The position numbers and the translations under genes were made by a program. From Bilabrum cf. latius (lineage: Eukaryota), in contig OZ237751.1 in NCBI GenBank assembly GCA_965178125.1, positions 992,001-1,056,000 on the forward strand: a stretch of DNA of 64,000 nucleotides, in the 5' to 3' direction. This document shows, piece by piece, positions 2,833 to 60,900 of the stretch. Positions within the stretch are counted from its first letter, which is position 1; every line of letters begins with the position of its first letter. Below the pieces are notes generated by a model. The model did no database searches. It was not told the DNA's origin and saw nothing but the letters and a program-made list of their open reading frames with translations.

Positions 2833-5448
2833 TCACACAATCTCGCCAGGTGCAGCACTGCCGGCCCCTGGCTTGCTCACGGCCTGCATGTTATCCACAG
2901 ACTTCTAAGACCCAACCGTATCGAGCTTGTCAGCCTCACGCCGAGTGGCACATTTGCAGCAGCACACATACCCGACCGCCACGGCCAGCACCATAGCCAC
3001 TCCAACGGCGATGATGGCAATGGCACCGGCACTGAGTCCATCATCGCTGTCATCCTGCTCTCCACCGTCGAGAGGAGGGGCCTCTTCCACCTGCAAGTCC
3101 TGTGTCAGAACCTCCACCTCCATCTCGATCGCATCGATTGATACCTGCAGGTCCTGCAACTCGGAGGGGACGGCAGCTCGCAAGTCTGCGATCAGGCTCG
3201 TTCGACCTCCACCTGCAGTTCCGTTCAGGTAGGCCAGCACAGCCTGCCTGGCCTGCTGCTCGTCGCGATCCATAGCAATGCGGACGGTGAAATCGACCTC
3301 CGAGCCGCTGACTGCGCTGCTAGTGGCCTGTAGCTGCCGTCTAGTGCCAGTGGCCGAGTCCAAACGGTTGATGGTCACCTCATCGGCCGATGCTGCCTCC
3401 TGCACGCCTGTCTGAAAGGGCTGCAGCAGGTGCTCCTGGAAGTTGGGAGGAGTCACGCGGGTGATGCGGGCGTTGGAAAATAGCAGGCGCCTCCCCCTCC
3501 GCTTCACAGGAGCCGTACACCTGCGCTCTGCATCGGCACACAGCAGGCCAACCATGCAGTTCGACGATGTCAAGCAGGTCCTGCCAAGGGAACACAACGG
3601 GCACTAGTCGTCGGATGGGTCCCCGCAGTCGATGTCGCTCTCCTCTCCGTTCATGACGGAGTCCATGCAGGAGATACCTGTCGCTGGCTCGCCCTCGGTG
3701 CCGGGGCTCGACGCAGGGGGGTTTCTGCTGGGAGTCGGCGAGTTGCTGGGGCTGCTGCTGACGCTCGGTGTGGGCGAGTTGCTGGGGCTGCTGCTGACGC
3801 TCGGTGTGGGCGAGTTGCTGGGGCTGCTGCTGACGCTCGGTGTGGGCGAGTTGCTGGGGCTGCTGCTGACGCTCGGTGTGGGCGAGTTGCTGGGGCTGCT
3901 GCTGACGCTCGGTGTGGGCGAGTTGCTGGGGCTGCTGCTGACGCTCGGTGTGGGCGAGTTGCTGGGGCTGCTGCTTGGTGATGTAGACGGCGTTGGAGAT
4001 GGCTCGATCTGGCTCAATGTCCACATCGCGCCTCGTCCGCTTCCGCCGTCCTGGTCACCGGTTGCGCCTACATACAAGGTGCGCGCTCCAGGCCCCGACT
4101 CGCACGTTGATGCAACCGCACTCCCGAAGTAGTTACGGTCGGTAAGGCTCCCATCAAAGCCACCCTCTGCATCGGCGACCTTGTGGTGCTCCTTGTTGGT
4201 GCCGTCCGAGTTGAGCAGAAGGATCCACACAGCGCCGCGAGAGGTACCACGGCCAGCATCTCCAGATGCCCCAACGGCAAGGTCCATGACACCATCGCCA
4301 TCAAGATCACCCATGCAGGACAACGAAATTCCGAAGGCGTCACCGTCGGCTAGAACTCCGGTAAAGCCCGCACCTCCAGGCAGAATCTTAACGAACTCAT
4401 CCACGGTTGCATCGCTGTTAAGAAACAGGATCCAAACGGCGCCGCGGTTATTCCCACCCGTCGAATCTGAGCTGGATCCGACTGCAATGCTGCGTAATCC
4501 GGATGTATTGTTGCTCAAGCGCCCCAAGTAAGCAACTGCCGTCCCAAATCGAACGTTGTTGCTCAATGTGCCAGTAAAGCCACCTTGCGTATCAGATATC
4601 TTCTGGTAGCTCTCGACTGTGCCGTTGGAATGCAAAGATAAGTACCATGCCGCTCCCCGCTCAAATCCGCCATCATTGTCGTAAGGTGCCCCCACAAACA
4701 AATCAACGGCCCCCCGCTAGTCCAGTGACTCAGCCACCGTCATGCTCAGGCCAAAATCATTGCCGTCAGCCAACGTCCCGGTGAAGCCCTCCTCGGTGTC
4801 GGAGATCCTTGATTGCCCCCTCACGGTGCCATTGGAATGAAGAAACAGGATCCACACGGCGCCCCGGCCAGATCCACCACCGCGGTCGCCGGGTGCCCCA
4901 ACGGCCAAGTCCTGCACTCCGTCTCCGTCAAGATCACCTAGACACGCCAACGCAGCACCAAACAAGTAGTCATTATCTAGAACTCCGCGAAAGTCCCCAT
5001 CTGTGCTCGAGATCTTTTGGTGCCCCTTGACGGTTCCGTTTGCACGCTGGAACAGGATCCATACTGCGCCTAAGTTTTCCGAGGCTCGCCCTTCATCATC
5101 ATCCGGCTCTGTTGAGCCGTCATCGTCGAGCATGGCACCAACTGCCAGGTCGGACACGCCATCGCCGTCCAGGTCGCCAAGAATCGCGATCGAGCATCCG
5201 AAGCCATCACCATTTTCGAGGATGCCTACAAAACCGCCTTGCGTCGACGAAATCTTCTACGATGTTTCGGGAAAGTCAATGCCGTCGCTGCTTAGGCGCC
5301 GACTTGCCTCGCGCCCTTCTTCGGCATCCCCTGCTGCACCCTCCAAGTGCACCGCTTGGACATTATGTTGCACCATGTCCACGTGGCTATGGGCCATGCC
5401 TGTCTCAGCGGCAGCGAGTATAGCGATTCCCACCACATGCCTGTGCAT
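2833..5448 (-). CDS. Type I membrane FG-GAP repeat (integrin-alpha-like beta-propeller) protein with Ser/Pro/Thr stalk, Cys-rich module and C-terminal TM helix; TAG at 5257, 4717, 3604, 2905; TGA stop
   Basis: Signal-like N-terminus, repeated FG..A.LGDLDGDG..DLAVGA...GAVWIL units, CMDSVMNGEESDIDCG module, TM AGAIAIIAVGVAMVLAVAVGYVCCC. Continuous frame through the TAGs to TGA at 2835-2833. Confidence 0.88.
3737..3975 (-). repeat. Coding 36-bp tandem repeat (about 6.5 copies) encoding SSSPSNSPTPSV, a mucin-like stalk
   Basis: Near-perfect unit gttgctggggctgctgctgacgctcggtgtgggcga. Confidence 0.92.
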
Positions 5449-6407: not shown

Positions 6408-6818
6408 TCACTCAGGATGATCCAGAAGCACCTATACCCCGCCGTGGTGGGGTTGTGCTGCAGCTGGAGCTCCTGGATCCTCGGGCTCGATCTCTTGAGG
6501 AGGTGCTTCGCCAGGGTCAGCAGCTGCGACTGCTCCTCCCCGGATTCCGCCCTGCAGGTTGAGTGCGACCGGCAATTCTTCCTGCTGCTGGTCGGCTTCA
6601 GCTTCGGTCTGTTCAACGACTGCTGCGAGTGCTGCGGCCTCTGCCGCCTCACCTGCCGCTGCCACTGCTGCTGCTTCCTGTTGCTGTTCCGCTCTCTCTG
6701 CGTCCTCCCTCCTCTTCTCCTCCTCGGCAATGGCACGGCGCGTAGTCCTTGTGAAGGCAACAGGCTGGGGGCCTGTGGGGGACCACACTGATGGCGAAGA
6801 ATGGGAACTCGGCGGCAT
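6408..6818 (-). CDS. Small Ala/Glu-rich hypothetical protein in an AT-rich island; TAG at 6432, TGA at 6410-6408
   Basis: ORF with coiled-coil-like EEEKRREDAERAEQQQE; no recognisable domain. Confidence 0.35.
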
Positions 6819-17922: not shown

Positions 17923-20900
17923 TCAGCCTACGGTGCAGCAGCCTGGCCCGCTCCTCGCCGAGGTCGTGCTCCTGCCCTCGCCCGCGGGCTGCTTCTCCTC
18001 CTGCTCGTCCTCGCTGTCCTCTGGCGCATCCATCACGCCCCGCGGCCTGTCCCCCTCAGCCGCGGGGCCCCGCCGAAAATCCCCACCGCCCGACGGCTCC
18101 TTGCCCGAGTCCGTCCTGTCACCCCCCCTGCCCCTGGCGCTCCGCTTGCCGCCATGGTGACCCACGCCCACGTCCCCGGGATCCCGCTCGCTCCGCTGCG
18201 ACATTGCCCCGCCCAGCGCCTGGCGCTGCGCCTCATCGCTAAAGTCCATCTGCTTGCGGCCGCCGGCGCCGCGACCGGTGCTGGGACCCCCGATCAGCGT
18301 ACCCCCCGGGGTCTTGGGGACGCTCCGGATCCCCCCCGCGTTGCTGAACCTCCTCGTCCTCTTGCTCGTGCTCTTGCGGCGGCCCCCCTCCTCGCCCGAG
18401 CTGGAGCGGTCCATCCTAGCCCCACCGCTGGCCGCGGCGAGGCGGCCTGCAGGCGTCCTGGGGGCGGCCATCACGTGCAGCACGCCCTGCCCGTCCGAGG
18501 TCTCCGCCCTTGAGTGCGCCCTCGAGTGCGCCCTAAAGTGCATGGAGGCCTGGGAGCGGCCGTCCGAGTCATCGTGTCCGTCCCTGCTCCCGTTGCTCGA
18601 GGAATGCCTGGAGAACACGGACATGCGCCGCGGGTGGCCCATAGCACCGGGGCCGCCCGTGGCATCGCTGTCGTCCCGATCGTGGTGCGACATGTAGTTC
18701 CCCGCCTCCAGCATCATGGCAGCTCCGGAGGCAGGGCCAGCCGCCTCGGACCGAGCCGAGCTGGAGGACAGCCCGCGCGGGAAGGCCCTGTACTGTTCCC
18801 CAGAGGAGCTATGCCCCCCCGCGCCGCCCCACTGGTTCCCGCCCCGCGCACCCGAACCGCCCACGGGCCGGCGCACGCCAAGGCTGTCCCCGCCCGACTG
18901 GTCCCTGTGACGAGTGCCCAGGCTGCCAGACCCGTTGCCGCTCCCCCCCCTCGGTGGCGGGGTGGGCCGTGCCCCTGGCCTGCCGGGCACGTTGGGCCCG
19001 AGCCCCCTCCGGCCGTCCACGGCCTCCCTGGCCGCAGCGATGGTCGCGGCCGCGGTGGTGCCCGGCCCGCCCATGCCGGCCCCAGCCCCCTGGTCGCTGC
19101 CCGCCTCGACCTGCCCCGGTACCCTGGGCCCGGTCCTGAAGCCCTCTCCCGGGCCCGTGGGGGACTGCCAGTGCTGCCTCTGCAGCCCGTCTGAGTCCCC
19201 CCCTATGGGGGTCACCCCCGGGAGCGACCCCGACCCATCGGGGGAAGGCATCGCGCGCACCGGGCCCACGATCCGACGGGCCCCGCTGCTCCTCCGCTGC
19301 CTGCCACCCTCCGTCCCCGGGGAGCTCATCGGGCTCATGAGGCCCCCGCCGGGGCCCGCGTCCGTCACCCTCAGCCTGGTGGGGTCAAATGCCCCCGAGG
19401 AGGGGGCAGCAGCAGCTGTCCCCTCCGGCTCCGGGGGTGCCAGCAGCCTCCTCGCCCTGGCAGGGGGGGAAGCCTTCCACATGGGGAGGTGGGCGTTCCT
19501 CGTGAGCCTCTCCACGAAGCCCTCGGGGGCGCTCATGTGCACGATCCGGAACTTCTGCTCCTCATCGTCAGACATGAAGAAGTACATGGCGGCCCCGCCC
19601 CTGTACTCCAGCTCCTCCATGCCCACCAGGGCCTCGGACCGAGTCCCCGCGTCCTCCGGCCTCTCCGCAATGCCCTGCACGTCCCTCGCCGTCATGCCCT
19701 GCATCAGAGCGTCCACGGACTGACGCCTGTTCCTCTTCTTGCGCACGGGTTGGGGGGCGTGCCTCGCGGCGTCCTCGTCCTCGCTGTCGTCGTCGTGCAT
19801 GTGTGCACCACCGCCGCCCATCTCCTCCCTGTCCGCGCGCTGGGCCAGCACGTGCATGCGATGCACCGCCTCCATCTGCCGGATACGTGGGTCGATGTGG
19901 TAGGTGGCGGCGAAGAGCCTCCTGTCGTCGTCCGTGATCTTCACGCCGGCCATCTTGTCCCTGAGATCACGCTCCTGCTTCCTCAGCTGAGCGGCGGCGT
20001 TGTGGCCCACGATCTTGTCGGGCACCGCGGTGAGATCCACCCTCATGCGGTACTTGGGGGGACAGGGCGGGGGCACGAGGCGGGCCTCCACCAGACCCCA
20101 GTCCATCCCGCGGAAGAACGGGTGCTGCTGGATCTGCTGGAAGCCATCGGGGCCCACGCCCAGGCGCCTGCTCAGGTGCGGGTCCAGCAGAGCGGAGATG
20201 AACTGGGCCGACTCGTCGTCGAAGTACTTGCGGTCGTACCGCACGCTCGCCTCGTACGTCAGCTCGTTGTCCCGCTCCAGGCCCCGGCCCGAGGAGAAGG
20301 GCGACCGTCCGGTCATGAGGGCGTACACGAGGCACCCGAAGGACCACCAGTCCGCGCTCACACCGTAGGGGATGCGGCCCCCCCTGCGGTCCCTCGCGAG
20401 CATCTCCCTGCACCAGTAGGCAGGCGTGCCTGCCCTGCCCTTGTACCACTTGAGGTGCAGCGCGGGCTTGGCCGGGCACAGGCAGTCGATGTGGAAGCGC
20501 ACCGCAGCGTCCTGCACCGGTCCCTCCGGCCCCGCGTCCACGGCCGCCCTCCCCTTCTGCACCGCCTTGATGAGCTCTACGTGCCTGCATCCCATGCAGC
20601 AGGCCGTGCCCTCGGGGTACTTCTCTGGGGCAGCGCACACCACGTCCGTCATGGGCGCGCTCTTGGAGCACGAGTGCAGGAACACGGCGAGACCGTAGTC
20701 CGTGATCTGGCAGTTCCCGCGCTCGTCCAGCAGCACGTTGGAGGCCTTGATGTCTCGGTGGATGATGCCGTTCTCGTGGCTATGGTACAGCCCCAGGGCG
20801 ATCTAAGCAGCGAAGAACCGAGCCGTCTCGCGGTTGAAGCGCTTCTTCTCCTGGGCCAGCAGCAGCCTCTCGAGGTCGCCCCCCCACGCGAGCCGCATGG

Positions 20901-25006: not shown

Positions 25007-25897
25007 TTATTTTCCTTCTTCCCCTGCGCCGTCCACACTGTCAGTCAGCATGGAGAGCAACGTGGTCGCATCCAGCCTGACCAGCCGTCGGTGCAGAGCA
25101 TCCACGCTCCACACCCCCGAGGAAGCGGACACCGCACCGTCGCTGGTTCCGCTGCATTCGCCTTCTCCTGGTTTTGCTGCCGTGCCTATGTCCCGAGGAA
25201 GCTCCATCTCGCTCTCGGGACCTTGCGCCTCGCCTCCGCATCGCCCCTCCTCGTCCTCAACCCCCGGGCCGCTCACAGAGCCGCCACTGGAGGCTGCCGC
25301 GCTGCTGCTAGCCTCAGAGGCGTGTCGCGCTTTTCCAAACCGTTTGATGGCTTCTGATCGGCTCAAGAGCTTAAAGTCGTCAAAGTCAAACCCAGGAGAC
25401 ACCGTGCAGCCAACCAGACTGTATCCATGCTGGTAAGACTTGGCCCATTCGGCTGCATCGCCAGCCACGTCGGGAAGCAGTGCGGATAATGGACAACAAC
25501 CGAACCAGCGACCCGCTGGCACGACATGTGTACATGCTAGCCCCAACGAAGGCCTGCCTAATACGCTTATTTGGTACAATTGCGATTCTTGATCCCCGCC
25601 TGTTGGATGCTTCCAAAACTCGACAATTGCCAAGGGGTCGCCGTCGTAGAAATGCCACATCTCGTCCGACGCAATCACGTGGAGCCTAGAAGTTGACTTT
25701 TTTGTTAGCATGAAATGTATCGCGGTACTGGCGTATCTATCCCCCTGGTGCTTCGACGTAAGAGCAGACTATGGCAACGAGAGACTTGATTGATATACTC
25801 GCCGATAGTAGCCTCCTTCGGGGTGTGGCTCAAGCTTATACTGAGAAATAATGCTTTCAATTGATGTATGGATCGAATCATCTGCCGATCCTGCCAT
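25007..25897 (-). CDS. Cupin_5 (DUF985) domain protein; TAG at 25769; TAA stop
   Basis: LEPHPEGGYYRR, STAIHFML, SRLHVIASDEMWHFYDGDPL, VVPAGRWFG, SLVGCTVSPGFDFDDF. Confidence 0.9.
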
Positions 25898-26121: not shown

Positions 26122-26932
26122 TCACCTGCGCCTGCCACCACTCCTGCTAAAAGTGCGCGCCAGCATCGCGTGGTAGTCGATCTCTCCTTCACCCGCTATA
26201 CCTGCACCCCCTCCCCCTCGCCCCCCCCTGCCAGCGGAGGAAGCAGAGGCCCCCATCCCCACCCCGGACCTCGCCCTCGACCCCTGCCTCGAGGGGAACC
26301 TTCTCTCGAGCCTCTTCATCTCCCCCGTCGTCATGGGGACGCCCCTCTTGGCGAGGATGTCCCGCAGCACGCCAGAGTCCACGCCGTGCGTCTGGGGAAC
26401 AGCGCCGCCCCCACCGAACCGAAGGGAAGTGCCCCCGAAAGCACCCCCTCCGCTCGTGGAGCCCCCATGCGCCCCCCCGCTCGCACGCAGGGGACTGGAC
26501 CCCTGCCCGTGCCCCGCGCCCACCTTCCTCACGTCGTGGTAGATTCCCTGCCATGAGCGCCCCAGGATGCGCCGCATCTTCTCCTCTGTGGCTTCCATGT
26601 CAACGCTGCTCACGGTGCGCCCGTCCGCCATCACCTGCATCTTGCGGCGGTGCGTGCCCGCACGGACGGCCCTCACATGCCCGTTGGCTGGGTCCGCCGC
26701 CATGCCCGCCGGCACGGCCCCGGTCACCCCCATGCCCATGCCCATGCCCATGCTGCCCCCCACCGGGCTCCCCGCCGCCCTCCTGGCCCTGCCCCTCGAG
26801 GCCCTAGAGACCACCGACCTCACGTCATCGCCCCCCATGCCCATCCCCACGCCCACTCCCATGCCGCTCCTCTGGCTCTGCCGACTTCCCGGCCTGAATC
26901 CCCCCGACGCGGCGCTCCTGGGACGGTCCTGC

Positions 26933-26964
<32 letters not shown>

Positions 26965-29492
26965 GCTGGCTCTCGACCCCCGCCTCGAGCCCCCCCCTCC
27001 ACCCCCTCTCGACCCCTGGCTGGACCGCGTCACACGCCGAATCGGAGACGCCATTAGACCGCCGCCGCCGCCACCGTTGGATTTGCTCTCCTCTTCACCG
27101 GCCCGAGGCAGCGGCGCGCCACCGCCACCCGTCCCCGTGGGAGCCCCATGGTCTGACCTCTCCCTGCGCTTGGGCTGCACATCCACGTCGCGGTCCACCA
27201 CATACACGGCCGCCTGGGAGTCGTCCTGCACCTTGCCGACCAGCTCGATGCCGAGGTGCCTGTCGTTGGCCGCGGTCTTGACGAGGTAATCGCCCACGCT
27301 GTCCATAAACTCACCCCAGGAGATCTCCTTGTCGCCCGAGGTGTCATACTTGGCAAGCAGCATCTCCAGCTCCTCCCGCCCGAGCTGCAGCCCGAACTGC
27401 GCGATGGCACCCTCGAATTCGTCCATGGACAGCGCCCCGCTGCTGTCCTTGTCCAGCATCTGGAACGCCCGCTTGAGCTGGGGCTTCTTGCCGTACAGCT
27501 GCTGCGCGAGGATGGCCTCGGCCTTGTTGAGGCCCAGTGCAGGAGACACGAGGTCAGCGTCCTTGGCCTGCCTCGCCCTCAGCGCAGGGTTGGGCTGCAG
27601 ACGCGCATCAGGGTCCACTGTCATGGCGAAGTCGTCCGCCAGACGCTTCTCCACATCGTCGTCGTCAGCGCCCGCGAATCCGGCGTCCACGTTGTTCATG
27701 GAGGGGTGCAGGAGCGGGCCCACCTGCCTGTTGAACTCGGCATACGTGATAGACCCGTCCCCCGAGGAGTCGTACTTTGCCATGAGCCCCTGCCAGTCCC
27801 TGCGGCTTAGGTTGACACCCATGCTGTTGAGCGCGTCCTTGAACTCTTTCTCGTCCAGGTCCCCGCTCTTGTCCTTGTCGAACTGCCTGAAGACTTTCTG
27901 CACCGTACCGTACTTGCCGTACAGCTTGTCGGCGATCAGCTTCTCGGCGTTCACCAGCTGCATCTTGGGCGCGAGCCGCATCGCGCCCCACTTGGCGCCT
28001 CCTCCGTCCTCGTCATCGCCGTCCGTGTGCTCGATCTTGTCTGGAATCTTCATGTACTCTCGCATGGTCTTCTCGAATTCCTCCCAGGTCATGTCCCCCG
28101 TGTCGTTGTCGGGGGAACGGTGCTTCTGCATCATCTGCCATGACTCCTCGTCGCCCACCTTCTGGATGCCCAGCTTGCGCAGCGCCTGGATGAACTCGGC
28201 GTGCGAGATGAGGCCGCTGCCGTCCGTGTCGTAGTCGTCAAAGGCCCGCCGCAGGTTGCGGACCTTCTTGCGGAGGGCCTTACCGATGCTCTTGAGGCGC
28301 CACTCCTTGATCTTGGGAGTCTCGGGGCGATCCCTGAGCAGCGGCTCTGCCGGGGGGTGGATGAGTCGGCCAATCTTGTTGTTGAACTCGGCGTAGTTGA
28401 TGCGGCCGTGCCCGAATCGATCGAACCGATCCCAGAGCTTCTTGAACTCTGAATCCGACATCCTGAGGCCGATTAGATCCACTGCGGTTGGTGGAAAAGG
28501 AGAGGAGCGGCAAGTGAAGGGGACTAAATGATCACGGTGCATCTCCGGTGTCACATTCCCCAATTCCAGCTCAACGACCGAGAACCAATACAAGCCCAAA
28601 CAAACACACAGTTGCAGCGTTTCATTGATTTGCGGCCCGTCCCAGACTGCCGCACGAGGCAACTCTCTAGATGCAGCTGGCAGGCAAGCAGAGATAGGTT
28701 GGCGCCAACTTGCGCATGATCGTTCCTGCATGCGCGAGGCCCCCAAGAGGTGCCGAGGACCACTTGAGCCGTAACAATGCAAAACTTAATCACGTACGAT
28801 CTAAATCCGGGAAATTGGAAGCCGATAAATTCCCGCAACAAGCAATGTCACGCGGCAATGCGCTCAGCTTCCAACGGTTGGCTCGACGCAACCCAGGCAA
28901 TTACCATTCATGCAGGCTGTCCAGAGCCTAAACACAAGCACCAAACCATAAAACGTATAAAATCCAATACTCTTGACGAATTTAGAGCCCACGCGTCGAG
29001 ATTCGAGGGACATGCACGAAGCGAGCGCGCCATGGCGCGGCTGGCAGGGAGCGCTCAACGGAACCCCTAGCCCAGACAACGAATGAAGCAGCCCTGTGCG
29101 TTACGCCTACGGTTCCCTTGCAATCTATATCTAGATACATACACAAACGAAACAGTCTCCGCATGGGAGCACACGACAGCTCTCACAAGTAACGCGAAAC
29201 TCCGTCGCACTTATTAGTCCGGTGTGATCGTAGTCCATGCGCACGAAGGCGTCCTTGACCTTGGCATACCTGGAAGCCAGCTTATCTCCAAGAAGCTGCA
29301 GGTATAAATGATCAGAATGGGGGCGGAGATCAGTTAAAAGACAGCTTCGCGCCGCAGAGAGATGCATCGAGAAGCAAGATGCCTCACCTTAAAGGCCTCG
29401 TCTGCCGTCACCATGGTCTTCACAACCTTACGGCCAGCAGCCCCCTTGCTCTTCCTTGGCTTGATTCCCTCAGCTGTCAGAGATAACTCCAT
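26122..29492 (-). CDS. Multi-EF-hand Ca2+-binding protein (EFCAB6-like); several 5' introns
   Basis: EF loops DYDHTGLISATE, DRFGHGRINYAE, DTDGSGLISHAE, DKDKSGDLDEKE, DSSGDGSITYAE, DKDSSGALSMDE, DTSGDKEISWGE; TGA stop. Confidence 0.85.
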
Positions 29493-29617
29493 GATTAGAG
29501 CTTTACGGCTCGAATATGGATAGCAATCGTGACTCTATTTTTGCCCTTCCGTGTGCGGCGCCGCCGAGTTTGCGGAACCAGTGACCAAACGGATCAAAAA
29601 ACACCTGCCAACAAGAG

Positions 29618-31426
29618 ATGGAAACTGCAGCCCTATGGAGCCGATTAGGCTCGGTTGTGGCTCATGTTGATGCCAATATTGCGTAAGTGCGGGAATTACC
29701 GCACCGTGCAACCGCAAGGGCCTTGGATGGAAGATTTGTCCTTCGCTGTTTTACCTGTCTCGCAGCTTGGCCAGGAAATTCAGAGCGAAGGAATTCGATG
29801 CCGCGGTCACAATTTAGCGACATTATCGTGGTTCTGTCGTGCGGGAAGCGCTGATGCGATGGATGTGAGATACCGTGTAGATGCCGCTCAGACATTACTG
29901 CTGGCTTGCAGTTCCCGTCCACTCCCCCACTTCGCCGACCTTTGGCCTCCATTTGAGCGCGCAGCATATGCGCACTTGAGGTGTAGAGATCCTTCAGGGG
30001 CTACTTGGGCCGCCGACGAGCCCTTCGCGCCTTTGCGGCTCGTGAGGCCCGCGTGGAGGAGGCTCGGCTGGGCGCGCTCGTGACGACCGTCCAGGCGGCC
30101 TTTCGCGGGTATTACAGCCGCAAGTACGTGCACAGCATGTCCGCCATTCGGGACTACCTGCTCGCGGTGGAAGCCAAGGGCAGGCAGGTGAAGCACGAGA
30201 CCTTGCGAGCAGCGGCCGAGCAGCGGGCCCGCCTGGAGGCGAGCAGGCAGGCCGCCGCAGAGCGGGATTTCCTGGACGCCGCCGAGCAGCTGCACCACCT
30301 GGTCAGCACCAAGTCACGCCCAGGAGTCTTTAACCCCCCCTACGCGGGGGCACGCACGGGGGGTGGTGGCCCCCCCACGGCCTTTGGTCTCCCAGTGGAG
30401 GATCACATCAAGGAGCGGGCGCTCCTGTTCACCCGGGAGAGGGGCCTGGACAGGAGCCAGTGGCCATCGGCGGAGAAGAAAGAGGTGGCTGCGGTGCGCA
30501 GGGCACTGCGGGATGTGGGGGGCCGCAAGCCCACCCCGGCACAGGTGGAGCAGGCGCTGGCCGAGGCCGCGCTGGGCTCGACGCTCGAGGCGACGCCGGG
30601 GGCGGCGCAAGGGGGGCTCCGCGGCACCGCGCAGCTGCCCGCCAGGCCACCCACCATTGCGCGGGCCCCGCCGCCGTACGCCGATGACGCAGGCAGGGTG
30701 TCTTTGCGTGCCTCTGAACCGTACGACGCCGCCAGGGAACAAGCCAAGGAGGAGCAGAGGTACGAGAAGTACCGGCAGCTGGACCCGCGGCCCTTCGCTG
30801 CGGGCGGCAAGGTCAGGCAGAGAGCTCCGGGGAAGAGCGTGAGAGACGACGGCGAGTTCGTGGACACTTGGAGGCGCACGCGGCTGGATAGGGCGAGGGA
30901 GTTCGAGCCGGACCAGAAGGGCAAGTGGCTGGCGGGGCGGGACTTCCAGAGGGTGTCCCGGGGGGGCGGCGTGTTCGAGGACCAGCAGCGGAGAGCGGCG
31001 AGGGACGGCGTCCTCAAGGTGGTGGCGGACGTGCGGAGCAGGGGGTCGCTGGGTGACTCGAGGTCGCTTGGCTCGCAGTCGCAGAGCCGGTCGAGTGCGG
31101 GAGGGGGCGGGAGCCGGAGAGGCCGGGGCCGGAGCAGGGGCGACGTTGCGGATGGGGCAGGGTCACGAGCAGGAGTAGGAGCAGGGCGGTAGGTCGAGCA
31201 CAAGGACAGTGAGGGTGAAGGGGGTGCCGGTGATGGTATCGACGGGGGCATGGCTTCGCTAGAGCTGGAGGGTGAGGGCGGCGTTCCCGAGTGGGACGGT
31301 GGGATGGGGGCGGAGGCACAGGATTCTAAGCTGGGCAAGTAGAGGCACGTGGCTGGGTCTGCGGGTGTGGCTCTGCGCGGATTGCGAAGGGATCGGCGGG
31401 GTCAAAGCAGACAGCAGGCGACCTGA
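29618..31426 (+). CDS. SPATA17: SPATA17-like triple IQ-motif ciliary protein; introns 29683-29765, 29865-29964; TAG at 29815, 29984, 31190, 31340
   Basis: IQ motifs AAVTI[Q]RHYRGSVVR, LEV[Q]RSFRGYLGR and TTVQAAFRGYYSRK, followed by HHLVSTKSRPGVFNPPY; TGA at 31424. Confidence 0.8.
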
Positions 31427-31599: not shown

Positions 31600-34500
31600 T
31601 CACTCATCAAGCTCCACCTGCCCCTTGTCCTCCTCACGCCCTTGCCCCAGGTCCTCCTCCCCAGCCGAGGAGGGCACAAGGTCGATGGCACGAGCCACCA
31701 TGGCAGCCAGTTCGGCCTGCTCGTTGGCGCCCAGCGGGTCAGGCTGCGAGTTCGGGGCCATTGCATGGCTGTTGGCGCGGCTCGGGGGCGGCATGGCCCC
31801 TTCGTCGTGGCTGCCATCCGCACCGCGATCACTGCCCACGGTGCCATCGTTGCCCAGTGCGGCAGCGCCCCAATCCTGCGGGAAAAGCAAGCTAGCGCGA
31901 AACAGTGCACGATATTGATGCTTCGATTGGACGCAGACTGTAGCAGCCCTCGTAGGGAGGAAGCACCAGTCATCGTGCCCCTCCGAAATAAAGCTGCAGG
32001 GTAGGTCTACTCTGGCTCCCTTGCCGGGCGAGCCCGGGCCCGTGGGGAGGTTCAGGCCCGGGCAGATCAGTGGGCAGGAGCGTAAAGGGATGATGCAGTC
32101 TATGCCGTGTGTATTCTCTCACCTGAAGTTGGTCGACTGGCTCGTCTGGTCCTCCACGGGCCTCGTGGGCTTCCGTATCCTCGTCCTTCCCTTCTGCGAT
32201 CTGTTCGAGTCCATCCGCTGCCCCGCGCGAGCCCGCTGCGTCCGGCCTGGCAGCAGCGAGCACATCGCAGATGGAGGCGCACACGGCGATTGTGGACCCT
32301 GCGCTCTCGAGGGGCAGGGCCGAGGGGTGGCTCCTGAGGGAGAGCTGCAGGTCCGATGGCTCCTCTTCCAGCGCGCTCGCGACTTGGCCGTACGGGGCCC
32401 TCTGCACGGCGATCATCCGGTGAAACACGGCCGCGGGGACGGCTTGTTTGGCCGGCGTGCCCTGCCTCAGCCTGTTCCCCACGTCCTGCATCATGGCCAG
32501 ACAGCGCTCCCACAGGATGGGCTTGGCAGCTTGGGCGGGGGCCGTGAGCACGGTGCTGGCCATACTTGCCAGCAGCGCCACGAAGGCGTCTCTCTCCGCC
32601 CTGACGTGCTCGATGTCCGCCAGCGCCTCGCTCAGGCGCTGCTCCCTCAGCACCCGGTCCCTCGCAGGACCGCCCTTGCCCGAAGGAGACACGGCCGCAT
32701 CCTCCTCGCGGCGGGCAAGCTCGGCAGCTGAGAGGGCTTCCTTGTGCCGCGCACCATCAGTGTCTTCCCCCTCCTTTGTCTTGTCTCCAGCTGCAACCGC
32801 TTGTGCATCAACTCCTGCCTCGTTCTCGTCTTGCTGCTCCTCCTGCTGCCGCTCCTGTTCCTGATCGCTCCGCAGAATCTCGCTGGCCCTGGCCTCCGCC
32901 AGCTGCCTCCTGAGGTCCCCCGCCTCCTCGTCCAGCAGGGCCAGCTGCTGCTTGAGCTCCCTGTTCTCCTGCACCACGGCCTGGCCCTCGATCTGCACGC
33001 GCGCGCACCAGTGCTACGACCGGGCCTGCTGCTGCTGCACCACGTGCACCTCGGCCTGGGTGGTTCGGAGGGCGCGCCGGAGGAGAGCCGCGCGGTGCAG
33101 CAGCTCATCTGCATTGAGCTCGTCGTCGTCGGTGGCCGGCTGCAGCAGCTCCTGCACAGGCACCTCCTCGTTCTCGTTCTCGTCCTCCTCGAGGGCACCG
33201 CTAGCAAAGGCTCCACCGGTGGATGCTCCCACGGGCGAAGGGGCGGAGTGGCCCGTGCGATCGGTGCGACTGCTGCCCTGCTGCTCCTCTACTTGTTCTC
33301 CTTGCGATTGGTGCTGCTTCTGCTGCTCCTCCACCCCCGGCCAACCCCCGTGTCTGCCTCTTCCTTCGCCTCCCGCGCGCGCCTTCTCCTTCCCCTCTTC
33401 CTCGTCCTCGTCCTCGTCCACCTCGGTCTGGGTCCCTGCCTCGGACCTCCCCTCCAGCTCCCTCCGCAGGTCAGCGGCATCCTCCAGAAGCTCAAGGCTC
33501 CGCGCCGAGTGCCGCGCCAGCTGCTGCATGGCCGCCGAGTGCACCGCCTGCACCTCCCCCTTCACGTCCCCCATACTCTCACGGATAGCCCCCCTCACCT
33601 CGTGCTGCAGCCCCCTGCGTGCCTTCTCGAGAGCAGCGCGCCCGCCTTCCAGAGCCAGCTCCAGCAGGTCCCCGCGAGACAGCAGGGAACCCGCCTGCTG
33701 CCGCTGCTCGCCGCCTGCTGGCACCGCGGGTGCACTGGCTGCCATGCGTGACACAGGAGAGTACTTGTCGAGGGGGAGGGCGCGGCCCGGCTGCATGGAC
33801 TGCGTGGACTGGCGCATGGGCCGGCGGGTCCTGCCGTCCAGCCGCATGCTGGCAGTGGCAGCCAACGAGCCCGCCGCTGGGTTCCGCTGCCGGTCCTCTT
33901 GTTCCCTTTTCGTAGAGCTGCCATTGCTGGTACTGTCTTCTGCTCCATCCCGTGAGCCGATCTCTTGCTGTTGCTCTCGCTGCACGGAATGCGCCGGTGG
34001 CCCCGAGACAGCCACGAGCCGACTCACCGCATTGTCTTCTCCAGCCCCCTTGCCCCCGTCATACCCACCCCTCAGCATCATGAAGGACGTGGAGGACCGC
34101 TCAGAGGCCGCTGCCAGTTGGGCACGAGGGGCCCCATGGGCTGCACCAGAGCTCTGCATGCCTGTCAACTGGCCCTGCTTGTCCGTTGATTGGCTGCTGA
34201 AGACCTCGCTAGGCACGGGGGGCAGCTCAGTAGGCCCCGAGCTGGGCCGGGACACGACAGTTGGCTCGGGATCCACGTGCCCTGCCTCGGCAGGTGCAGA
34301 CGAGGCGGCTGAAGAGGCCGAGCCAGCAGCTGCAGGGATGCTGGTCGGGTCCCTGGCACCCTCTACCGGAGCCTCTCCGTCGCGGAATGGGTGGGTGAGG
34401 CGCATCGTGCGCCTGCGCCGGTCGCCCCTCCCCTTAATCCATTCTCTCTCGCTCTGGTCTCCCCCCGCGGACAGGTCCTCGATGCTCATGGGAGGGCCCA

Positions 34501-36814: not shown

Positions 36815-37324
36815 AGATACGTTGTAAGTATTGATCGCAGCAGGACCAGCGCAGTGATCTCCAAAGGCTAACGTGCGCGATATGCGAATCGAATGCTCAC
36901 CGCTGCACTTCGTCTCGATGGAGCCGCCCTTTTTGGCCGCTCGAAGTCATCGATGCTGGTTGGTGTGAATCCAGACCTTGCATTCTGCGAGAAATACGGC
37001 GGGCAAGGCTGTCACGCGGGCGCAAGTGCTCGGTACGGACGGCGGTGCATGGCAGGCAATTGCTCCGTCAAGCGGCGAAGACGATTTGCAGATCCGTCTT
37101 GCCGATCTCCTCACCTTGTCCTGGCGCGCCGCCATGAACATCTACTCTCGACTTCCAGAGCTTAGTCTCGGCGTGTCTGGAGTATCCATCTTGCGGCTGT
37201 TCTGCCGCCGAGCGCCATGGGCGCACCTCGTTTTGCGGAACCAGTCGCGCGGCGACCGCTGCAACTGGCTTGGTCGCAAGCAGTGATCGCAAGCAAGAGA
37301 GGATCCATGAACCCCCCACGCGAA

Positions 37325-40300
37325 TTAATCATACAGCGACTCCTCATCTTTATCCTTGCTACCCTGTAGCACCGCGCTAGCCCCGCTCCTGCGATCCACA
37401 GCATGGCTTGAGGAGCCGCCTAGCTCCATTTCAAACCGCCGCACGTCCTCGATGGACGATCGCCCACTGAGCATGTCAGCGCGATCCATGTACCCAATGC
37501 CAGGGATCAGGGTCTCCACACCCTCCTCAGTCCCCACGGGCTCCCCCCCGTGCTCCTCCGAAGTGTCCAGGGCCCCAGCCGGGGATGACACCTCCTCGCT
37601 ACCGGCGCTCTTGTATGCCCGGGGGGAACCACCCGAGGCGCAGTCCTCCCTGATCCGATCCATTGCCTCGTCCGAGGCTTGCCAGTGTGCTCTCAACTCA
37701 CCGGCGGAGGAGGACTACAAGCCCTCGCCTTGGTCGACAGGCGCGGATTCCGCTCTCACCACCCGAGCTGGGCCAGCACCAGCACCAGCACCAGCACCAG
37801 CACCAGCACCAGCACCAGCACCAGCACCGATGGGCATTCCAGCAACCACTTGCCTTGCACCAGCACCTGCCCCTGCCCCTGCATGCTCCACTGCCAGACC
37901 AGCGCCGTGCCTAGTCACGTCCTCCCTGTGTCCCCCCGGCACGTGCCCCCGCCCCTACCCGCCCGCCTGCTCCCGGAACATTAGCACGCCCTGCCGCTGG
38001 CTGCCGTGCTTCCCCACCCACGCGGCCTCCTCCGGCCCGTGACCGTGACCGTGAACCCCGCCGCGGGCCATACCCCCCCCGGCCCTCCCCCGCCCCCGGC
38101 CCCTGCCCCCCAGAGCCGACTGCCCCACCGCAGTGACCAGCCAGTCCCTCGCCCAGGCCTGCTCGCCGCTCTCCCCTGCGCCGCCCCTTCCCCCCCCTCC
38201 CCCCTCCCGATGCTCGTCCAGCTGCTTCTGCTGTTCCCTCACGTTCCAGTGCAGCTTCCTCTTGATGCTGTGCACCCAGTCCTTGACCGTGCCCCTGAGA
38301 CTCACCAGCGGCATGGGCCACGGGCTGGTCGTCACCTCCACGCAGTCCCCCGGCCGCAGCTCCGTCTGGTGACCCCCATCAAACGAGGCGCTGACGCTGG
38401 CCCGGGCAGTGGCAGGCACCACCAGCCTAATGAGTGCAGAGTCCGGCAGGATGAGAGGTCGGAAGGACAGCGAGTGCGGGCAAATGGGCGTGAAGCAGAT
38501 GCCCGGCGTGGACGGCAGCATGATGGATCCACCTGCCGCCAGGGAGTAGGCCGTGCTGCCCGTGGGAGTGGCGATCAGGATCCCATCCGCGTACACTGTG
38601 GTGAGGTGCTCCCCGTCCACGAAGGCGTCCACAGCTGCCATGTAGGGGCTCGTGCCCCTGTCGATCGACAGCTCGTTCAGCACCGTGTACTCCTCCTGCC
38701 TCTCCCTCTCCCTCTCCACTTCCTGGTGCTGCTGCTCCCCATCGCTTCCCTTGCCCGCGGCCTGCCTCCCGCCGGTGCTCCCTCCTCCTGCACCTGCACC
38801 TGCACCTCCAGTGCGCCGCAGCACCCGCACCCTCAGCCTCGTCCGGATGGCCACGTCCACCTCGGCCACTTCTTTGGCGGGGGGTGGCAGCTGGGGGCCT
38901 GCCGCCCCTGGCGCTTGTTCCCCGGTGGCAGCGATGCTACTGCCATGGGTGCCTCGGCTGAGGCTCCTGTCTATTGTGGATGTGCCCGCGGGAGTTGTGG
39001 GGGCTGTCCTGCAGGCATCACCCGAGGACCCGCCATCAGCAACAGCGAGGGGTAGAGGGAGGGCCGGGGGCTCGCGGGTGCCTTGGTCCGCCTGTGCTCC
39101 CAACTGCAGCTGGGAGGCACTGTCAGTGGTGGTGGCTCTTGCCCTTCCCTTGTTGTTCCCCTAGGCAGATAGGGTACTGAGAGAGCCAGTCCCCGGGCGT
39201 GGCAGGGCCAGTTGTGCCCCGGGCCCAGCCACGGCCCTCTGCCCCTCTGTCTGCCCCTCCTACTAGTAGGGGCCGCTCGACTCCCTCACCACCGAGTCCG
39301 AGGAGGCGGACCGGGGCCTGGGGCCAGAGTGCGAGCGCATGTGCGAGGGAACAGGGGGGGCTAGCTGGGCGCGGGCACTGGCATTCCCTGCGGTGCCTGT
39401 GCCTGTGCCTGTTCCTCGGCTCCCCGCCGCCACGGTCCGCCTCCGACCCATCGGCCCACCGCTGCCGCTGCCATGCGCCTCCTCACCGTCGCGCTGCTCG
39501 GTCTAGTCGCGCATGCGTGCTAGCCCGCCATCGATCGAGGGATGTAGGTCACCGGCTGCCGAGCTGCGGCGCCCCCCTTGCCCCGGTGCCTCCCCCGCGG
39601 GGGCACTCTCCATGCGGGCGCGCTGCAGCTGCGACAAGCCGGAGCCGGCACCACCCGAGGATGAGGAGGGAGGCGGGGATCCGGAGTCGTTGCCCGGTCC
39701 CTCGCCGGCGAGAGCACTCTTCTGGGAGCCCTTGGAGCGCGGGCGGGGAGGGCTGCCCGGGGTGTCGCTGCCCCCGCCTGGGGTACCCCCGCCTCCGGGG
39801 GAATTGCCCCCCGACTTGGCCCCCCGCCCCCGCACCCTCTCTGGCAGCGCGTCCACGACCTCCCCGTCCAGGATGCGGCGCAGCTTATGCCTGGCGTTCT
39901 GCATGTCAAATGCCGTCATGAAGCCCAGGGAGCCGAACGCCACGCTGAGCACGGGAGGGACGGGCCCCTGAAACATGCGGCCGCAGTGGAGCACCGTGCC
40001 GTCCCCGCCCAGGCACACCACAAGGTCCACCAGCTTCGCGTGCCGAGAGGGGTCATACTTGGTGATCGAGGGACTCGTGCCCTTTGGCATCTGAGAGACG
40101 GCGCGCCGCGCAGTCTCTGTCATTGCGAGGCCGCCAATCTCGCTGGCATGCGCCCGGAGCGCCTCGATGCACGATTCAACGAGGTCCCACTTGTCGTCTT
40201 CCTCGTTTATGTACACCCGCAGTCCCATGCAGTCTCGCAACCATAGTGCGATTCCGGCGGCTGCGCGCCGCGCGGCCACGTCCCGCCACTTCTTCATCAC

Positions 40301-40453
40301 GAGGATCCTCGTGGGCCTGCTCTTCCACTTTAGCTTGACCTTGCGGACTGAAATCTGCCTAGCAGCAATCTAACCATCTGGGACATCTTCGGGCAGTCCA
40401 CATCCGTCAACTGTGCACTCTATCAGCTGCAGGCATGCCTTCTTGGCAGACAT
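37325..40453 (-). CDS. NADK: NAD(+) kinase with large low-complexity insertions; TAG at 40370, 39503, 39263, 39260, 39161, 37955, 37715; TAA stop
   Basis: LKWKSRPTRILVMKK, DLVVCLGGDGTVL, GSLGFM, VLNE, ADGILIATPTGSTAYSLAAGGS, TPICPHSLSFRP, KLHWN. Confidence 0.93.
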
Positions 40454-40693
40454 GGCGAATTGCTGCACCTGAAACACAGAAGTTCCGGAAAGCAGATCGT
40501 TCAACTCAAAGAATCAAACAGCCAGTAGAAATAAGCCAATCAAAAGATAATGCGATCGAGCTTTGCCCTTTTGCCGGCCTAACCATGCAATTAGTACGAC
40601 CCGATTCTTCATCCGGAATCTGTATTAACTGCGAATGTGACGTGCTATATCGAGGTGGTCAACGCAGTTGCGCTAGATTAAAATTTCGCAGCC

Positions 40694-47943: not shown

Positions 47944-49055
47944 ATGGCAAAACCGAAGAGTAGCGGCAGCACATAGCTGCATGCTCCATCAATGTACAAT
48001 TTTGCCATGCAACTTATCTCTGGAGCGGGTGCAGGTGCTATTACGAAGACATGCATTGCTCCACTGGAGAGGATCAAGATTCTGTTGCAAATTCAGGTAA
48101 GAAACCTCACCGAATCCAAGTGATAGTTTGTGTTTGTCTGTTCCAGCAAGATGCGCACCTGTATCGTTCGAGTAGCCTCCTATGCGCGTTGCGATCGCAG
48201 GGGATGCGAATCGCAGAGGGAGTAATCGACAAGCCGAGATACACTGGAATGATGGATTGCGGCGCGTACGTTGTTCGAGAAGAAGGGCCGCTAGCATTGT
48301 GGAGAGGAAATGGCGCTAATGTAGCCAGGGTGATCCCGGTGTATGCTCTTAAATTTGGTTTCAATGACTCTTTCAAGGAGATGGTTGCTGGACCGGAGGC
48401 TCTGCAATCCGGGAGTCGTCTCAGCTTTCTGCAGCTGATCTAGGCGGGCACATTGGCGGGTTTGTTTCAATAGTTAATTACATACCCGTTGGAGGTGGTC
48501 CGCACTCGGCTCACGATGGGCCCAAAGCTGGGCATCGAGTACAAGGGCATGCTGGACTGCGGCGTGCAGACTGTGCGGTCCGAGGGCATCGGGGGCCTGT
48601 ACAAGGGGCTGGCCCCTACGCTGATGAGCGGCTCGCCGTATGTGGGCATTTAGATGACGGCCTACGAGATGCTCTCCCGGATGTCCCCCCAGCTGGACGT
48701 GTTCCAGGACGAGGCAGTGCAGGCCAGGGTGAGGGCGGCGGAGGCAGAGGGCAAGGGGGCGCAGGGACCTCCCCCCTCGCTGCCGTACAAGCTGTGTGCG
48801 GGCGCGGTGGCGGGATTGCTCGCTCAGTCCATCACGTATCCCGGCGACACGATCCGGAGGAGGATGCAGCTGAATGGCGCTGGCGGCAAGGCCAGGCAGT
48901 ACGCGACCAGCTGGGACTGCACCAAGCAGATTTTCCGTCGCGAGGGTATCAGGGGGTTCTTCCAAGGGGTTGGGACGAACGTGGTGCGGTGCATCCCGGG
49001 TGCTGCCATCCAGTTCGCTGCGTACGAGACGCTCAAGCAGCTCCTCAAGGTGTGA
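47944..49055 (+). CDS. Mitochondrial carrier (SLC25) protein; intron 48097-48200; TAG at 47974, 48441, 48471, 48651
   Basis: Three carrier repeats with PLERIKILLQ, PLEVVRTRL and PGDTIRRRMQ, plus LWRGNGANVARVIP; TGA stop. Confidence 0.93.
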
Positions 49056-57993: not shown

Positions 57994-60900
57994 ATGTCGC
58001 GATCAGACGCAGAGGCTTTATTTGCCTCCTATGGCATTGACCCCAAAGCTCCGTACCCTTGCACGGTTTTGGATGGTGAGCGTCCTATCGGCCCTGGCCA
58101 ACCGAACTCGATCATATACCCGCTCGTAGCGATAGCGTTGCTCAATGCAGAACGCATAGTTTGCGATCCCACGCCCAAACGTCAGTTATGTGTGCGCCAG
58201 TGGGCGTCTGCAGCGCACTAACGATCTGTGACCTCAGCCAGAATCCGCCGCCCAACCCACCGGTTGTGGGTTTGGCTGCAAGACGGCAGTTTTCGCACAG
58301 AAGCAGCACTGCATGCCGGTCATGCCCAACGAATGCACGTTGCATGCCAGATTCATGTGATTCGCTGCATGCCTTTCCACCGCAGAGCTGTTTCACGACG
58401 TGGTGGCCATCGATGTGAACGCTCTCGTGGAGCAGCACCCCGACAACCTGCTGTCCAAGGCGCTCACCAACCACCTGGCCATCCCACGGTGGAAGCGGTT
58501 CACCTCAGAGATCAAGGGGATATTCAGGTCCATTCGAAGGCACGTCAAGGGCGGATCCAACGCGCAGTACATCCCGGTGCTGGCCGAGGCGGATCCCAGC
58601 AAGTTCGCGGTGTCCGTGTGCACGGTGGACGGGCAAATGTACTCGGTGGGCGACTACAACTGGGGATTCTCTATACAGAGCTGCGTGAAGCCGCTGCTGT
58701 ACGCGATGGCCCTTCAGGAAAACGGGCTCAAGCGGGTGCACCGGCACGTGGGGCACGAGGCCAGCGGGCTCGCCTTCAACGAGGTCAGCCTGAACAAGGA
58801 CGAGCTACCCTACAACCCCATGGTCAACTCGGGAGCCATCGCCACAGCCTCCACTGTCAGGCCGCAGGAGAGCTCCGCGGCTAGGTTCCGCGCCTTCAAG
58901 AAGTTCGTGGAGGGGCTGGCGGGGCCAATTAAGGTGGGCTTCTCGCAGCCCACGTACCTGTGCGAGAGCGAGACTGCCTGGAGGAACAACGCGCTGGTGT
59001 ACTTCATGATGAAGGCGGGCGTGTTCTCGAAGGACGTGGACCCGCTGCAGAGCCTTGACTTCTACCTGCAGGCCTGCTCCATCGAGGTCACGGCCAGGGC
59101 GGCGGCATGCGTGGCCGCCACTCTGGCCACGGGCGGGATCATGCCGCTGACGGGGGAGCGCCAGATCGAGTCGTGGGTCGCGCACACGGTGATCCAGCAG
59201 ATCTTCGTGGGGGGCATGTACGACGCCTCCGGGGAGTGGAGCGTGCAGGTGGGCCTGCCAGCCAAGAGCGGGGTGGCCGGTCTCATCTACGTGATCATAC
59301 CCAACCGGGCGGGCATCGCGATCGTGTCCCCGCCTTTAGACGACCACGGCAACTCGTTTCGGGGAGTGGAGTTCTGCAGGCGGCTGCTGCGGTCCTACCC
59401 GCTGGGCATCTTCGACCAGATCATCTCTGCCTCCATCGACGAGCGGGGGCACTCGAACGTGCTGGCGGATGAGCCGAGGGGAGGATCCGCGCATGGGAGC
59501 GCCAGCAGCTCGAGTGGCCCGGGCACCGTAGTGGCAGAGTCCGTGCTGGATCCGGAGCAGTACCATGGGCAGGCACAGGCCGCCAGCACGGCTGATCCTG
59601 GGGCGGACCACGACCGGGGAACGTGGGGCGCGGGGGGGTCTGTGGCCACGGATCAGGCCGAGAGCAAGCAGCAGGGGGGCATCAACGAGGACGGTCGCGG
59701 GGGGCAGAGGAAGGGGCAGAGGCCGCGCCGGGGATCCCTGACGCGGGAAGCGGTGGGCGGGCAGAGCTTCATCCGAAAAAAGCACGGGCGGAGCGACGGT
59801 GAGTTCGACCAGGCCTCTCCCCGTCCTGACGCGACCGACGCGTCTAGCAAGGGCGGGGCTGGAGCTACTGGCCCTTCGTTCGACTTCGGGGCCCAGATGG
59901 CGGAGAGCGAGGCAAGGGGGCTGCTGCACGAGGTGCGGCACGTGAGTCTGCGGCTGGTGCGGCTGCTCCGGAGGGTGCGGCTGTACTCGAGGTTCTACCA
60001 GTGGGCGCAAAGGGAGGGGCTCCGGCGATCGACTAGCCACGAGGAGCTGGGCAGCGAAGGAGGGGTGGACATGCGGTACGCCGCGGACGAGATGGAGTCT
60101 GGGTTTTCTCCAGAGGCGAAGGCGGTGCGGCCCCAGGGCTCTCCCCCCGCTGGGGCGGTGAGCGCGGAGGACGACATCGCCGGCTTGACCCGGGATGCAC
60201 CCGCCGGTACCCGCGGTGGTTTCTCTATCTGCGACTTGCAGATGCCCAGGCAGGCCCTGGAGGAAATGCTGCTGAAGCGGGGCATCGAGCTGGACCCGGA
60301 GCGGCAGCCGTACGCGTGCGGGCTCCTGGACCGTGCCAGGGCAGCGGGAGCGGCGCGCATGCGTGCAGAGGCGGCGAGGGCGGGTCTGGGTGACGCGGGC
60401 ACTGGACCCGTGTGCGAGGAGACGGGTGGGCCTTGGAGCGCGGGACCGGGCAAGCAGGTGTCGTTCTCGGCCGAGTCCCTGTCGGCGGGAGTCGCGCCGC
60501 CCGACTCGAGCGGGGTGGTGGAATCGCCCACCAAGCAGGCCCCCGCGGGACTCATGCGAGTGGGCGACCTGAGCAGTCCGCTGGGCCTGTCCCGGGGCCA
60601 GTCCGTGCTGCCCACGGACGACTTGGATGAGGCCGAGGAAGACAGCTGGGTGGTGGACGTGCGGGACCTCTTCCTCGCCGGTGTGCAGAGGAACCCGATC
60701 CTGTTCGCGGCGGTGGACGGGCTGGCCATCCCCGATTTCTAGCTGCTGCAGCGCGACCTAGATGAGATCATGGGCACGGTGCTGCGGAGCGCCGAGGCCT
60801 AGCAGGGGGAGGTGTACTCGAAGGACGACATCGAGGAGCTCTCTCAGGCGGACCCGGATGCGTGGGCCGTGTCGGTGTGCACTGTGGACGGGCAGACATA

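Follow-up and report, generated by a model that had tools for sequence, protein, structure and literature searches.

TAG at glutamine positions of a SPATA17/FAP305-like gene and the probable reading of UAG as glutamine in the nuclear code of Bilabrum cf. latius

The subject of this report is the meaning of the codon UAG in a 64,000-nucleotide stretch of DNA from Bilabrum cf. latius (assembly GCA_965178125.1, contig OZ237751.1, positions 992,001 to 1,056,000), called the window here and numbered from its first letter. The window is eukaryotic nuclear DNA with 63% G+C and short GT..AG introns. At 29618-31426 on the plus strand it carries a gene of the SPATA17/FAP305 type in which two of three IQ motifs spell their signature glutamine as TAG. 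Sequence comparisons make it very likely that nuclear translation in this organism reads UAG as glutamine, with the TAG codons of the IQ motifs being ordinary glutamine codons, TGA a stop and TAA probably a stop as well. The gene itself is normal and expressed, has three exons and encodes a ciliary IQ-motif protein of the SPATA17/FAP305 type. The glutamine meaning of TAG is presumably genome-wide, and it would be common to at least one diverged relative.

The SPATA17/FAP305-like gene and its TAG codons

Exon 1 of the gene (29618..29682) begins with the ATG at 29618 and ends in phase 2, and it is followed by an intron of 83 nucleotides (29683..29765), exon 2 (29766..29864), an intron of 100 nucleotides (29865..29964) and exon 3 (29965..31426). 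Both introns are canonical GT..AG introns with the boundaries that the original prediction had given them, and the three exons join in a single frame from the ATG. The first IQ motif (IQ1) lies in exon 2 and reads gcc gcg gtc aca att TAG cga cat tat cgt ggt, with its TAG at 29815-29817. The second (IQ2) and third (IQ3) lie in exon 3 and read ctt gag gtg TAG aga tcc ttc agg ggc tac, with TAG at 29984-29986, and gtc CAG gcg gcc ttt cgc ggg, with CAG at 30092-30094. The sequence therefore agrees with the earlier claim that IQ1 and IQ2 have TAG on the signature glutamine and IQ3 has CAG. Exon 3 holds two more in-frame TAG codons, at 31190-31192 and 31340-31342, which had been missed. The standard code breaks the frame at both IQ-motif TAG codons, while the frame with TAG as a sense codon is open up to the TGA at 31424-31426.

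The name of the gene, proposed earlier as SPATA17-like, is borne out by the family. A word-indexed search with exon 3 returned three relatives, and two of them, P0002 and P0003, have three IQ motifs, each with glutamine. A family profile search among 1.84 billion representatives gave 2259 proteins at E up to 0.001, with a protein of Tetrabaena socialis annotated as Spermatogenesis-associated protein 17 among the best matches. Against solved structures, the profile matched chains named FAP305 (E 2.9e-99) and Spermatogenesis-associated protein 17 (E 2.6e-30). FAP305 is a protein of the central apparatus. The spliced product aligns with 148 family members from residue 1 onward and is collinear with them: as in the family, three N-terminal IQ motifs are followed by the conserved block LHHLVST...PGVFNPPY...LPVE.H. 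Identity to the named members is about 39-41% in the conserved N-terminal part. Unlike those members, the window protein has a longer C-terminal half of low complexity. Public databases already hold standard-code predictions of this gene that are cut at TAG, namely P0001 (311 residues) and P0046 (131 residues), against a full length of about 540. P0001 is 98% identical to the window product, and by its sequence it suggests a second close strain or species.

The residue that belongs at the TAG codons can be read from the family. The alignment was built from 150 listed profile matches plus P0002 and P0003; four proteins of more than 700 residues were removed, as was P0001, which is truncated and nearly identical to the window product, leaving the 148 members. 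Glutamine fills the IQ1 column in 117 of the 128 rows without a gap (glutamate in 3) and the IQ2 column in 106 of 136 (glutamate in 12, alanine in 8). The IQ3 column, where the window has CAG, is glutamine in 144 of 145 and alanine in the remaining one. The coincidence of glutamine columns with the two TAG codons is beyond chance. The Pfam IQ model (PF00612, gathering score 20.3 bits) points to the same residue. The exon 2 piece with IQ1 scores 22.8 bits when TAG is translated as glutamine and 16.0 bits as serine, and has no listed match with glutamate, lysine, leucine, tyrosine or tryptophan. IQ2 scores 15.9 bits with glutamine and has no listed match with serine or any of those five residues. 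The best stretch in the exon 3 open reading frame (ORF) is IQ3, at 20.6 bits. It had been argued from the IQ consensus, [FILV]Qxxx[RK]Gxxx[RK], that the motif identifies the amino acid. This holds up, since the family columns are mostly glutamine and the best Pfam IQ scores come only with TAG as glutamine.

Another line of evidence is a related gene. A metagenome scan queried with P0046 led to two contigs, L001 and L002; a scan queried with exon 3 of the window found no relative. L002 is unrelated and AT-rich and was set aside. L001 is a contig of 7527 bases with 55% G+C, on which a Cupin_5 gene, an EF-hand gene and a SPATA17-like gene stand in the order seen in the window. It encodes P0046, a family member with 77% identity over 130 residues. 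Its SPATA17-like locus lies at 4631-6483, and the protein is 73% identical to that of the window (382 of 522 aligned residues). The first exons of the L001 gene are also 65 and 99 nucleotides long, with GT..AG introns at equal positions, and the ATG and GT donor of exon 1 are kept. Between the two, exons are conserved and differ mainly at third codon positions, whereas introns are not conserved; for example, intron 1 is much less so than the exons on either side of it.

TAG at both IQ sites is common to L001 and the window, despite synonymous change in the flanking codons. The three genes together give 14 aligned TAG sites once those that face a gap or lie upstream of the aligned coding part are left out. 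Two of the 14 have TAG in both sequences, six have TAG in one and CAG or CAA in the other (one of these in a low-complexity stretch), and six pair TAG with GAG, AAG, AGG, AAC, GAC or AGA. The two late TAG codons of the window gene precede a C-terminal tail that is conserved with L001, one of them facing CAG there, and both SPATA17-like proteins end at an aligned TGA. A conserved tail and an aligned TGA after these codons mean that translation goes on through TAG. Together, the glutamine columns at the two IQ sites, a third such column in a mitochondrial carrier (described below) and the six orthologous swaps with CAG or CAA identify glutamine as the residue.

The original prediction would have failed if splicing removed the TAG codons or if orthologues had another residue in those columns. 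The second is answered by the columns above. For the first, public sequencing runs were used. Nine of them contain the stretch, and contigs from four (X4 to X7) were compared with the window, X5 and X7 coming from one study, X6 from another, and X4 being a DNA run. The analysis left aside the small shares found in 'algae metagenome' and 'protist metagenome' runs. The control for spliced RNA was the divergent neighbour, an EFCAB6/CFAP115-like EF-hand gene at 26122..29519 on the minus strand, whose names come from solved structures. Its joints 28481/29187 and 29295/29388 (GT..AG on the minus strand) are found in X5, X6 and X7 and not in X4; the X5-X7 contigs are otherwise identical to the window and skip 28482-29186 and 29296-29387. 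Since these joints are present there and absent from the DNA run, X5-X7 hold spliced RNA.

In the IQ gene, the X5 contig covers 29965-31044 and the X6 contig 29965-30782 with no differing letter, and both pieces begin exactly at the predicted acceptor of exon 3. The contigs have 129 (X5) and 162 (X6) letters remaining, which depth arithmetic places in the bin 29507-30007; the depths of that bin, 9.27 and 1.76, are reproduced only if all remaining letters lie there. They fit exon 2, of 99 nucleotides, plus the end of exon 1. The TAG of exon 3 is thus retained unchanged in RNA-derived contigs and is not removed by splicing or editing. For the TAG of exon 2, we infer its presence in mature RNA.

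TAG in other genes of the window

The original prediction had spoken of this one gene. Its reading of TAG as glutamine stands, and its scope turns out too narrow, as the same meaning extends across the window and presumably the genome. Thirty long ORFs, bounded by TGA only, were scanned against Pfam, and 17 matched a family. The matches include glycoside hydrolases 2 and 31, FG-GAP, ERCC4, protein kinase, Cupin_5, EF-hand, NAD kinase, DNAAF11, prenyltransferase, mitochondrial carrier, EamA, porphobilinogen deaminase, and glutaminase with ankyrin repeats. The 3617 Pfam-covered codons, from 12 genes, hold 12 TAG codons, which are spread over seven genes, and no TAA or TGA. The same codons include 108 CAG and 15 CAA, so TAG makes up roughly one in eleven glutamine codons. 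In-frame TAG thus lies inside conserved domains of seven unrelated genes, and UAG has there changed from a stop to a sense codon.

A six-frame scan agrees in direction. Sequence on both sides is coding-like at 51 of 774 TAG, compared to 3 of 347 TAA and 8 of 1436 TGA. The codon-usage score behind these counts is a weak classifier, taken as a relative measure, and antisense frames of real genes also score as coding; the three TAA and eight TGA 'internal' cases include such frames.

Other TAG codons can be placed with respect to homologues. One is in the mitochondrial carrier gene, where the TAG at 48651..48653 (plus strand) falls on a near-invariant column with glutamine in 116 of 120 homologues. 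Solved carrier structures were tried as a guide to the carrier TAG columns and proved too distant. The TAG at 20803..20805 (minus strand) belongs to the catalytic domain of a protein kinase of the AGC type. In the FG-GAP gene, the TAG at 5257..5259 (minus strand) stands in a repeat reading S-TAG-KISS, and two of the five other repeats, compared by eye, have HQKISS and YQKISD at that position. In the glutaminase gene, the TAG at 60800..60802 (plus strand) comes before the second glutaminase domain and faces a glutamine of human kidney-type GLS chains.

Some features of these genes deserve mention in their own right. The glutaminase gene is a 1714-codon ORF at 58361-63502 (plus strand) with two tandem glutaminase domains ahead of ankyrin repeats and a long tail of low complexity. 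In the kidney-type glutaminases of animals, a single glutaminase domain is combined with ankyrin repeats. The FG-GAP protein (2836-5646, minus strand) has seven tandem copies of a 12-residue unit rich in serine and proline, SPSNSPTPSVSS, and a hydrophobic stretch near its C-terminus, and its layout resembles that of an integrin-alpha-like surface protein. The EF-hand gene and the SPATA17/FAP305-like gene form a head-to-head pair of motile-cilia genes (26122-29519, minus strand, and 29618-31426, plus strand) with about 100 nucleotides between the end of the EF-hand transcript in the RNA contigs (29519) and the ATG of the IQ gene (29618); the pair is also kept in L001, together with the adjoining Cupin_5 gene. 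Acidic low-complexity peptides are encoded by short GC-rich stretches at 33394-33425, 35890-35940 and 38787. In each of the four runs these stretches draw numerous contigs that fit only in part, as well as false joints, with depth up to 90-fold over the neighbouring bins.

Stop codons and competing explanations

The next matter is which stop codons are left. All three orthologous genes of L001 end at TGA, and the SPATA17-like and EF-hand genes of the window end at aligned TGA codons. The Pfam match of the carrier stops two residues ahead of a TGA. UGA is therefore a terminator, as in codes of the NCBI table 15 or table 6 type. For TAA there are two candidate terminators, at 25007..25009 (minus strand) in the Cupin_5 (DUF985) gene, where the coding score falls from +0.26 upstream to -0.52 downstream, and at 37325..37327 (minus strand) in the NAD kinase gene, where it falls from +0.39 to -0.35. 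The Cupin_5 orthologue of L001 ends nearby, at TGA.

The NAD kinase ORF (36950-40513, minus strand) has very long low-complexity inserts between two Pfam domains, and its coding score drops at the TAA 126 codons ahead of its TGA. In the same frame, one TGA beyond it, lies a 1658-codon ORF with no Pfam match (31973-36946, minus strand).

In-frame TAA is absent from the 3617 codons of the window and from 1566 codons examined in L001, the latter with 12 TAG. If TAA:TAG tracked CAA:CAG, 1.7 TAA codons would be expected in the window and 4.8 in L001, or 6.5 together, and the Poisson probability of seeing none is about 0.0015. With these absent codons and the two TAA at drops from coding to non-coding sequence, a code in which only UAG is reassigned (NCBI table 15 type) and UAA is kept as a stop is favoured, and we regard it as likely. 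An unlikely alternative, though one to be taken seriously, is that both UAA and UAG mean glutamine (table 6 type) and TAA is too rare to show in a GC-rich genome. CAA is indeed rare in the window (15 against 108 CAG), so that few TAA are expected there; nearly all genes end at TGA, as if it were the sole stop; and in ulvophytes the same cause makes TAG much more frequent than TAA (PMC2984419). However, no in-frame TAA stands on a glutamine column in either the window or L001, a comparison with limited power in the GC-rich window and better power in L001. There the CAA:CAG ratio is 16:40 and G+C at third codon positions is 0.51-0.62 in the three genes, and still TAA is missing beside the 12 TAG. 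The two TAA at coding-to-non-coding transitions, one with an orthologue that ends nearby, also speak for UAA as a stop.

Other readings concern TAG itself. It is improbable that TAG still serves as a stop as well as a sense codon. The six-frame scan does find 22 TAG that are coding-like upstream and non-coding-like downstream, but most of these are at exon-intron borders or in wrong frames. No examined gene needs a TAG stop: the carrier, the EF-hand gene and the Cupin_5 gene end at TGA or TAA where expected, and the SPATA17-like protein passes two late TAG codons to reach its conserved tail and TGA. A sense meaning other than glutamine, with glutamate the most plausible, is very improbable. 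Glutamate is the second commonest residue at IQ2 and is found at the kinase site in PKC chains, and one TAG of L001 faces GAG in the window. Yet at the three conserved columns the ratio of glutamine to glutamate is 117:3, 106:12 and 116:1, the partner of TAG is CAG or CAA at six orthologous sites and GAG at one, and TAG translated as glutamate gives no listed Pfam IQ match. Finally, the standard code could hold if the TAG codons were real stops in pseudogenes, were sequencing errors or were removed by splicing or RNA editing, but the in-frame stops that table 1 itself produces are the sole point for this, and we give it next to no credence. As far as these analyses reach, it is refuted by the 12 TAG within Pfam-matched domains of seven genes, without TAA or TGA, by identical TAG codons in independent RNA-derived and DNA contigs with no differences, and by a second species that keeps TAG under synonymous divergence; sequence also stays conserved downstream of the TAG codons.

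There are also observations that weigh against UAG as glutamine, or against parts of the argument for it. Glutamate occurs at IQ2 in 12 of 136 family members, and IQ2 falls below the Pfam cut-off even with glutamine, though it spells V-Q-xxx-R-G-xxx-R. The other two TAG codons of the carrier are on variable columns (glutamine in 19 of 120 and 0 of 120), and those of the glutaminase gene face methionine and asparagine. The three PKC chains shown have glutamate at the kinase TAG site, so this codon counts as sense without separating glutamine from glutamate. With regard to RNA, no run is on record as such: X5-X7 are labelled as guessed RNA, and X5 as 'probably DNA'. The splicing of exons 1 and 2 is drawn from piece boundaries, depth arithmetic and conservation, joints of the IQ gene itself not being among those shown, and a minor edited form may be compatible with the contigs. 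The expectation of 6.5 TAA codons assumes that TAA:TAG mirrors CAA:CAG, and the argument from it has a base of about 5200 codons plus the two candidate 3' ends. Also, ARAGORN and Rfam gave no tRNA gene and no Rfam match in the 64-kb window or L001.

The reassignment of UAG to glutamine could work as it does in other lineages with this change (PMC5304391). A glutamine tRNA with the anticodon CUA would decode UAG and not UAA, and the release factor eRF1 would no longer compete efficiently at UAG while keeping UGA (and UAA).

Lineage and significance

Eukaryotic nuclear code changes are known from a few dozen lineages. Known cases with different meanings for UAG and UAA are fewer still (PMC5304391, PMC11687900). 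UAA and UAG both mean glutamine in many ciliates, hexamitid diplomonads, oxymonads, Amoeboaphelidium protococcarum and three ulvophyte orders (Dasycladales, Cladophorales and Trentepohliales) (PMC2984419, PMC5304391, PMC11687900). UAG alone is known to mean glutamine in Iotanema spirale (Fornicata) and in the ciliates Protocruzia tuzeti, Hartmannula sinica and Trochilia petrani (PMC5304391, PMC11687900). The window is like these four in having in-frame UAG on glutamine columns, no in-frame UAA, and other codons as stops. It differs in the main terminator, which is UAA in Iotanema and the two phyllopharyngean ciliates and is TGA in the window, matching its 63% G+C. With the lineages of table 6 it has in common that TAG is glutamine, that TGA is a stop and that in GC-biased genes TAG greatly outnumbers TAA (PMC2984419). 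Unlike them, it shows no in-frame TAA among some 5200 conserved codons from the window and L001.

The organism has GC-rich DNA with long exons, mitochondrial carriers, haem synthesis and motile-cilia genes. Because of the carriers, the haem synthesis and the GC-rich DNA with long exons, it would be neither an anaerobic metamonad nor ciliate-like. The best carrier matches that bear a name, at about 50% identity, are stramenopiles (Hondaea, Cafeteria), rhizarians (Amorphochlora, Partenskyella, Nonionella) and amoebozoans (Flabellula, Pellita). None of the best 120 carrier homologues bears a green-algal or fungal name, and placement with the ulvophytes or aphelids is therefore without support. 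The glutaminase matched animals and bacteria, and an Atlas look-up of the porphobilinogen deaminase gave bacterial clusters only. In the full texts searched, UAG-to-glutamine changes appear only in the known cases, none of them a stramenopile or any other lineage outside ciliates and metamonads.

It may be, then, that a GC-rich, aerobic, flagellated protist clade outside ciliates and Fornicata has reassigned UAG alone to glutamine and kept UAA and UGA as stops, a proposal that we put forward tentatively and at a little less than even chances. This clade would be represented by the window organism, the second form with 98% identity in the SPATA17-like protein, and environmental relatives at 73% protein identity. 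If the proposal is true, it adds a further independent example of a nuclear genome that has uncoupled UAG from UAA in meaning, and the change of code is old enough for species that differ in a quarter of their protein residues. TAG as glutamine is a rare but known kind of code change, and it is new for the lineage unless the code of this organism has already been published.

Another lineage, here a GC-rich one that terminates mostly at TGA, would be a data point on the evolution of release-factor specificity and suppressor tRNAs, and the case would bear on a possible influence of base composition on the choice of the stop codon that becomes free. Since TAG is glutamine, standard-code gene models of this genome and its relatives are truncated or split at TAG. 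Annotation, orthology and phylogenomics of the organism require table 15 (or table 6).

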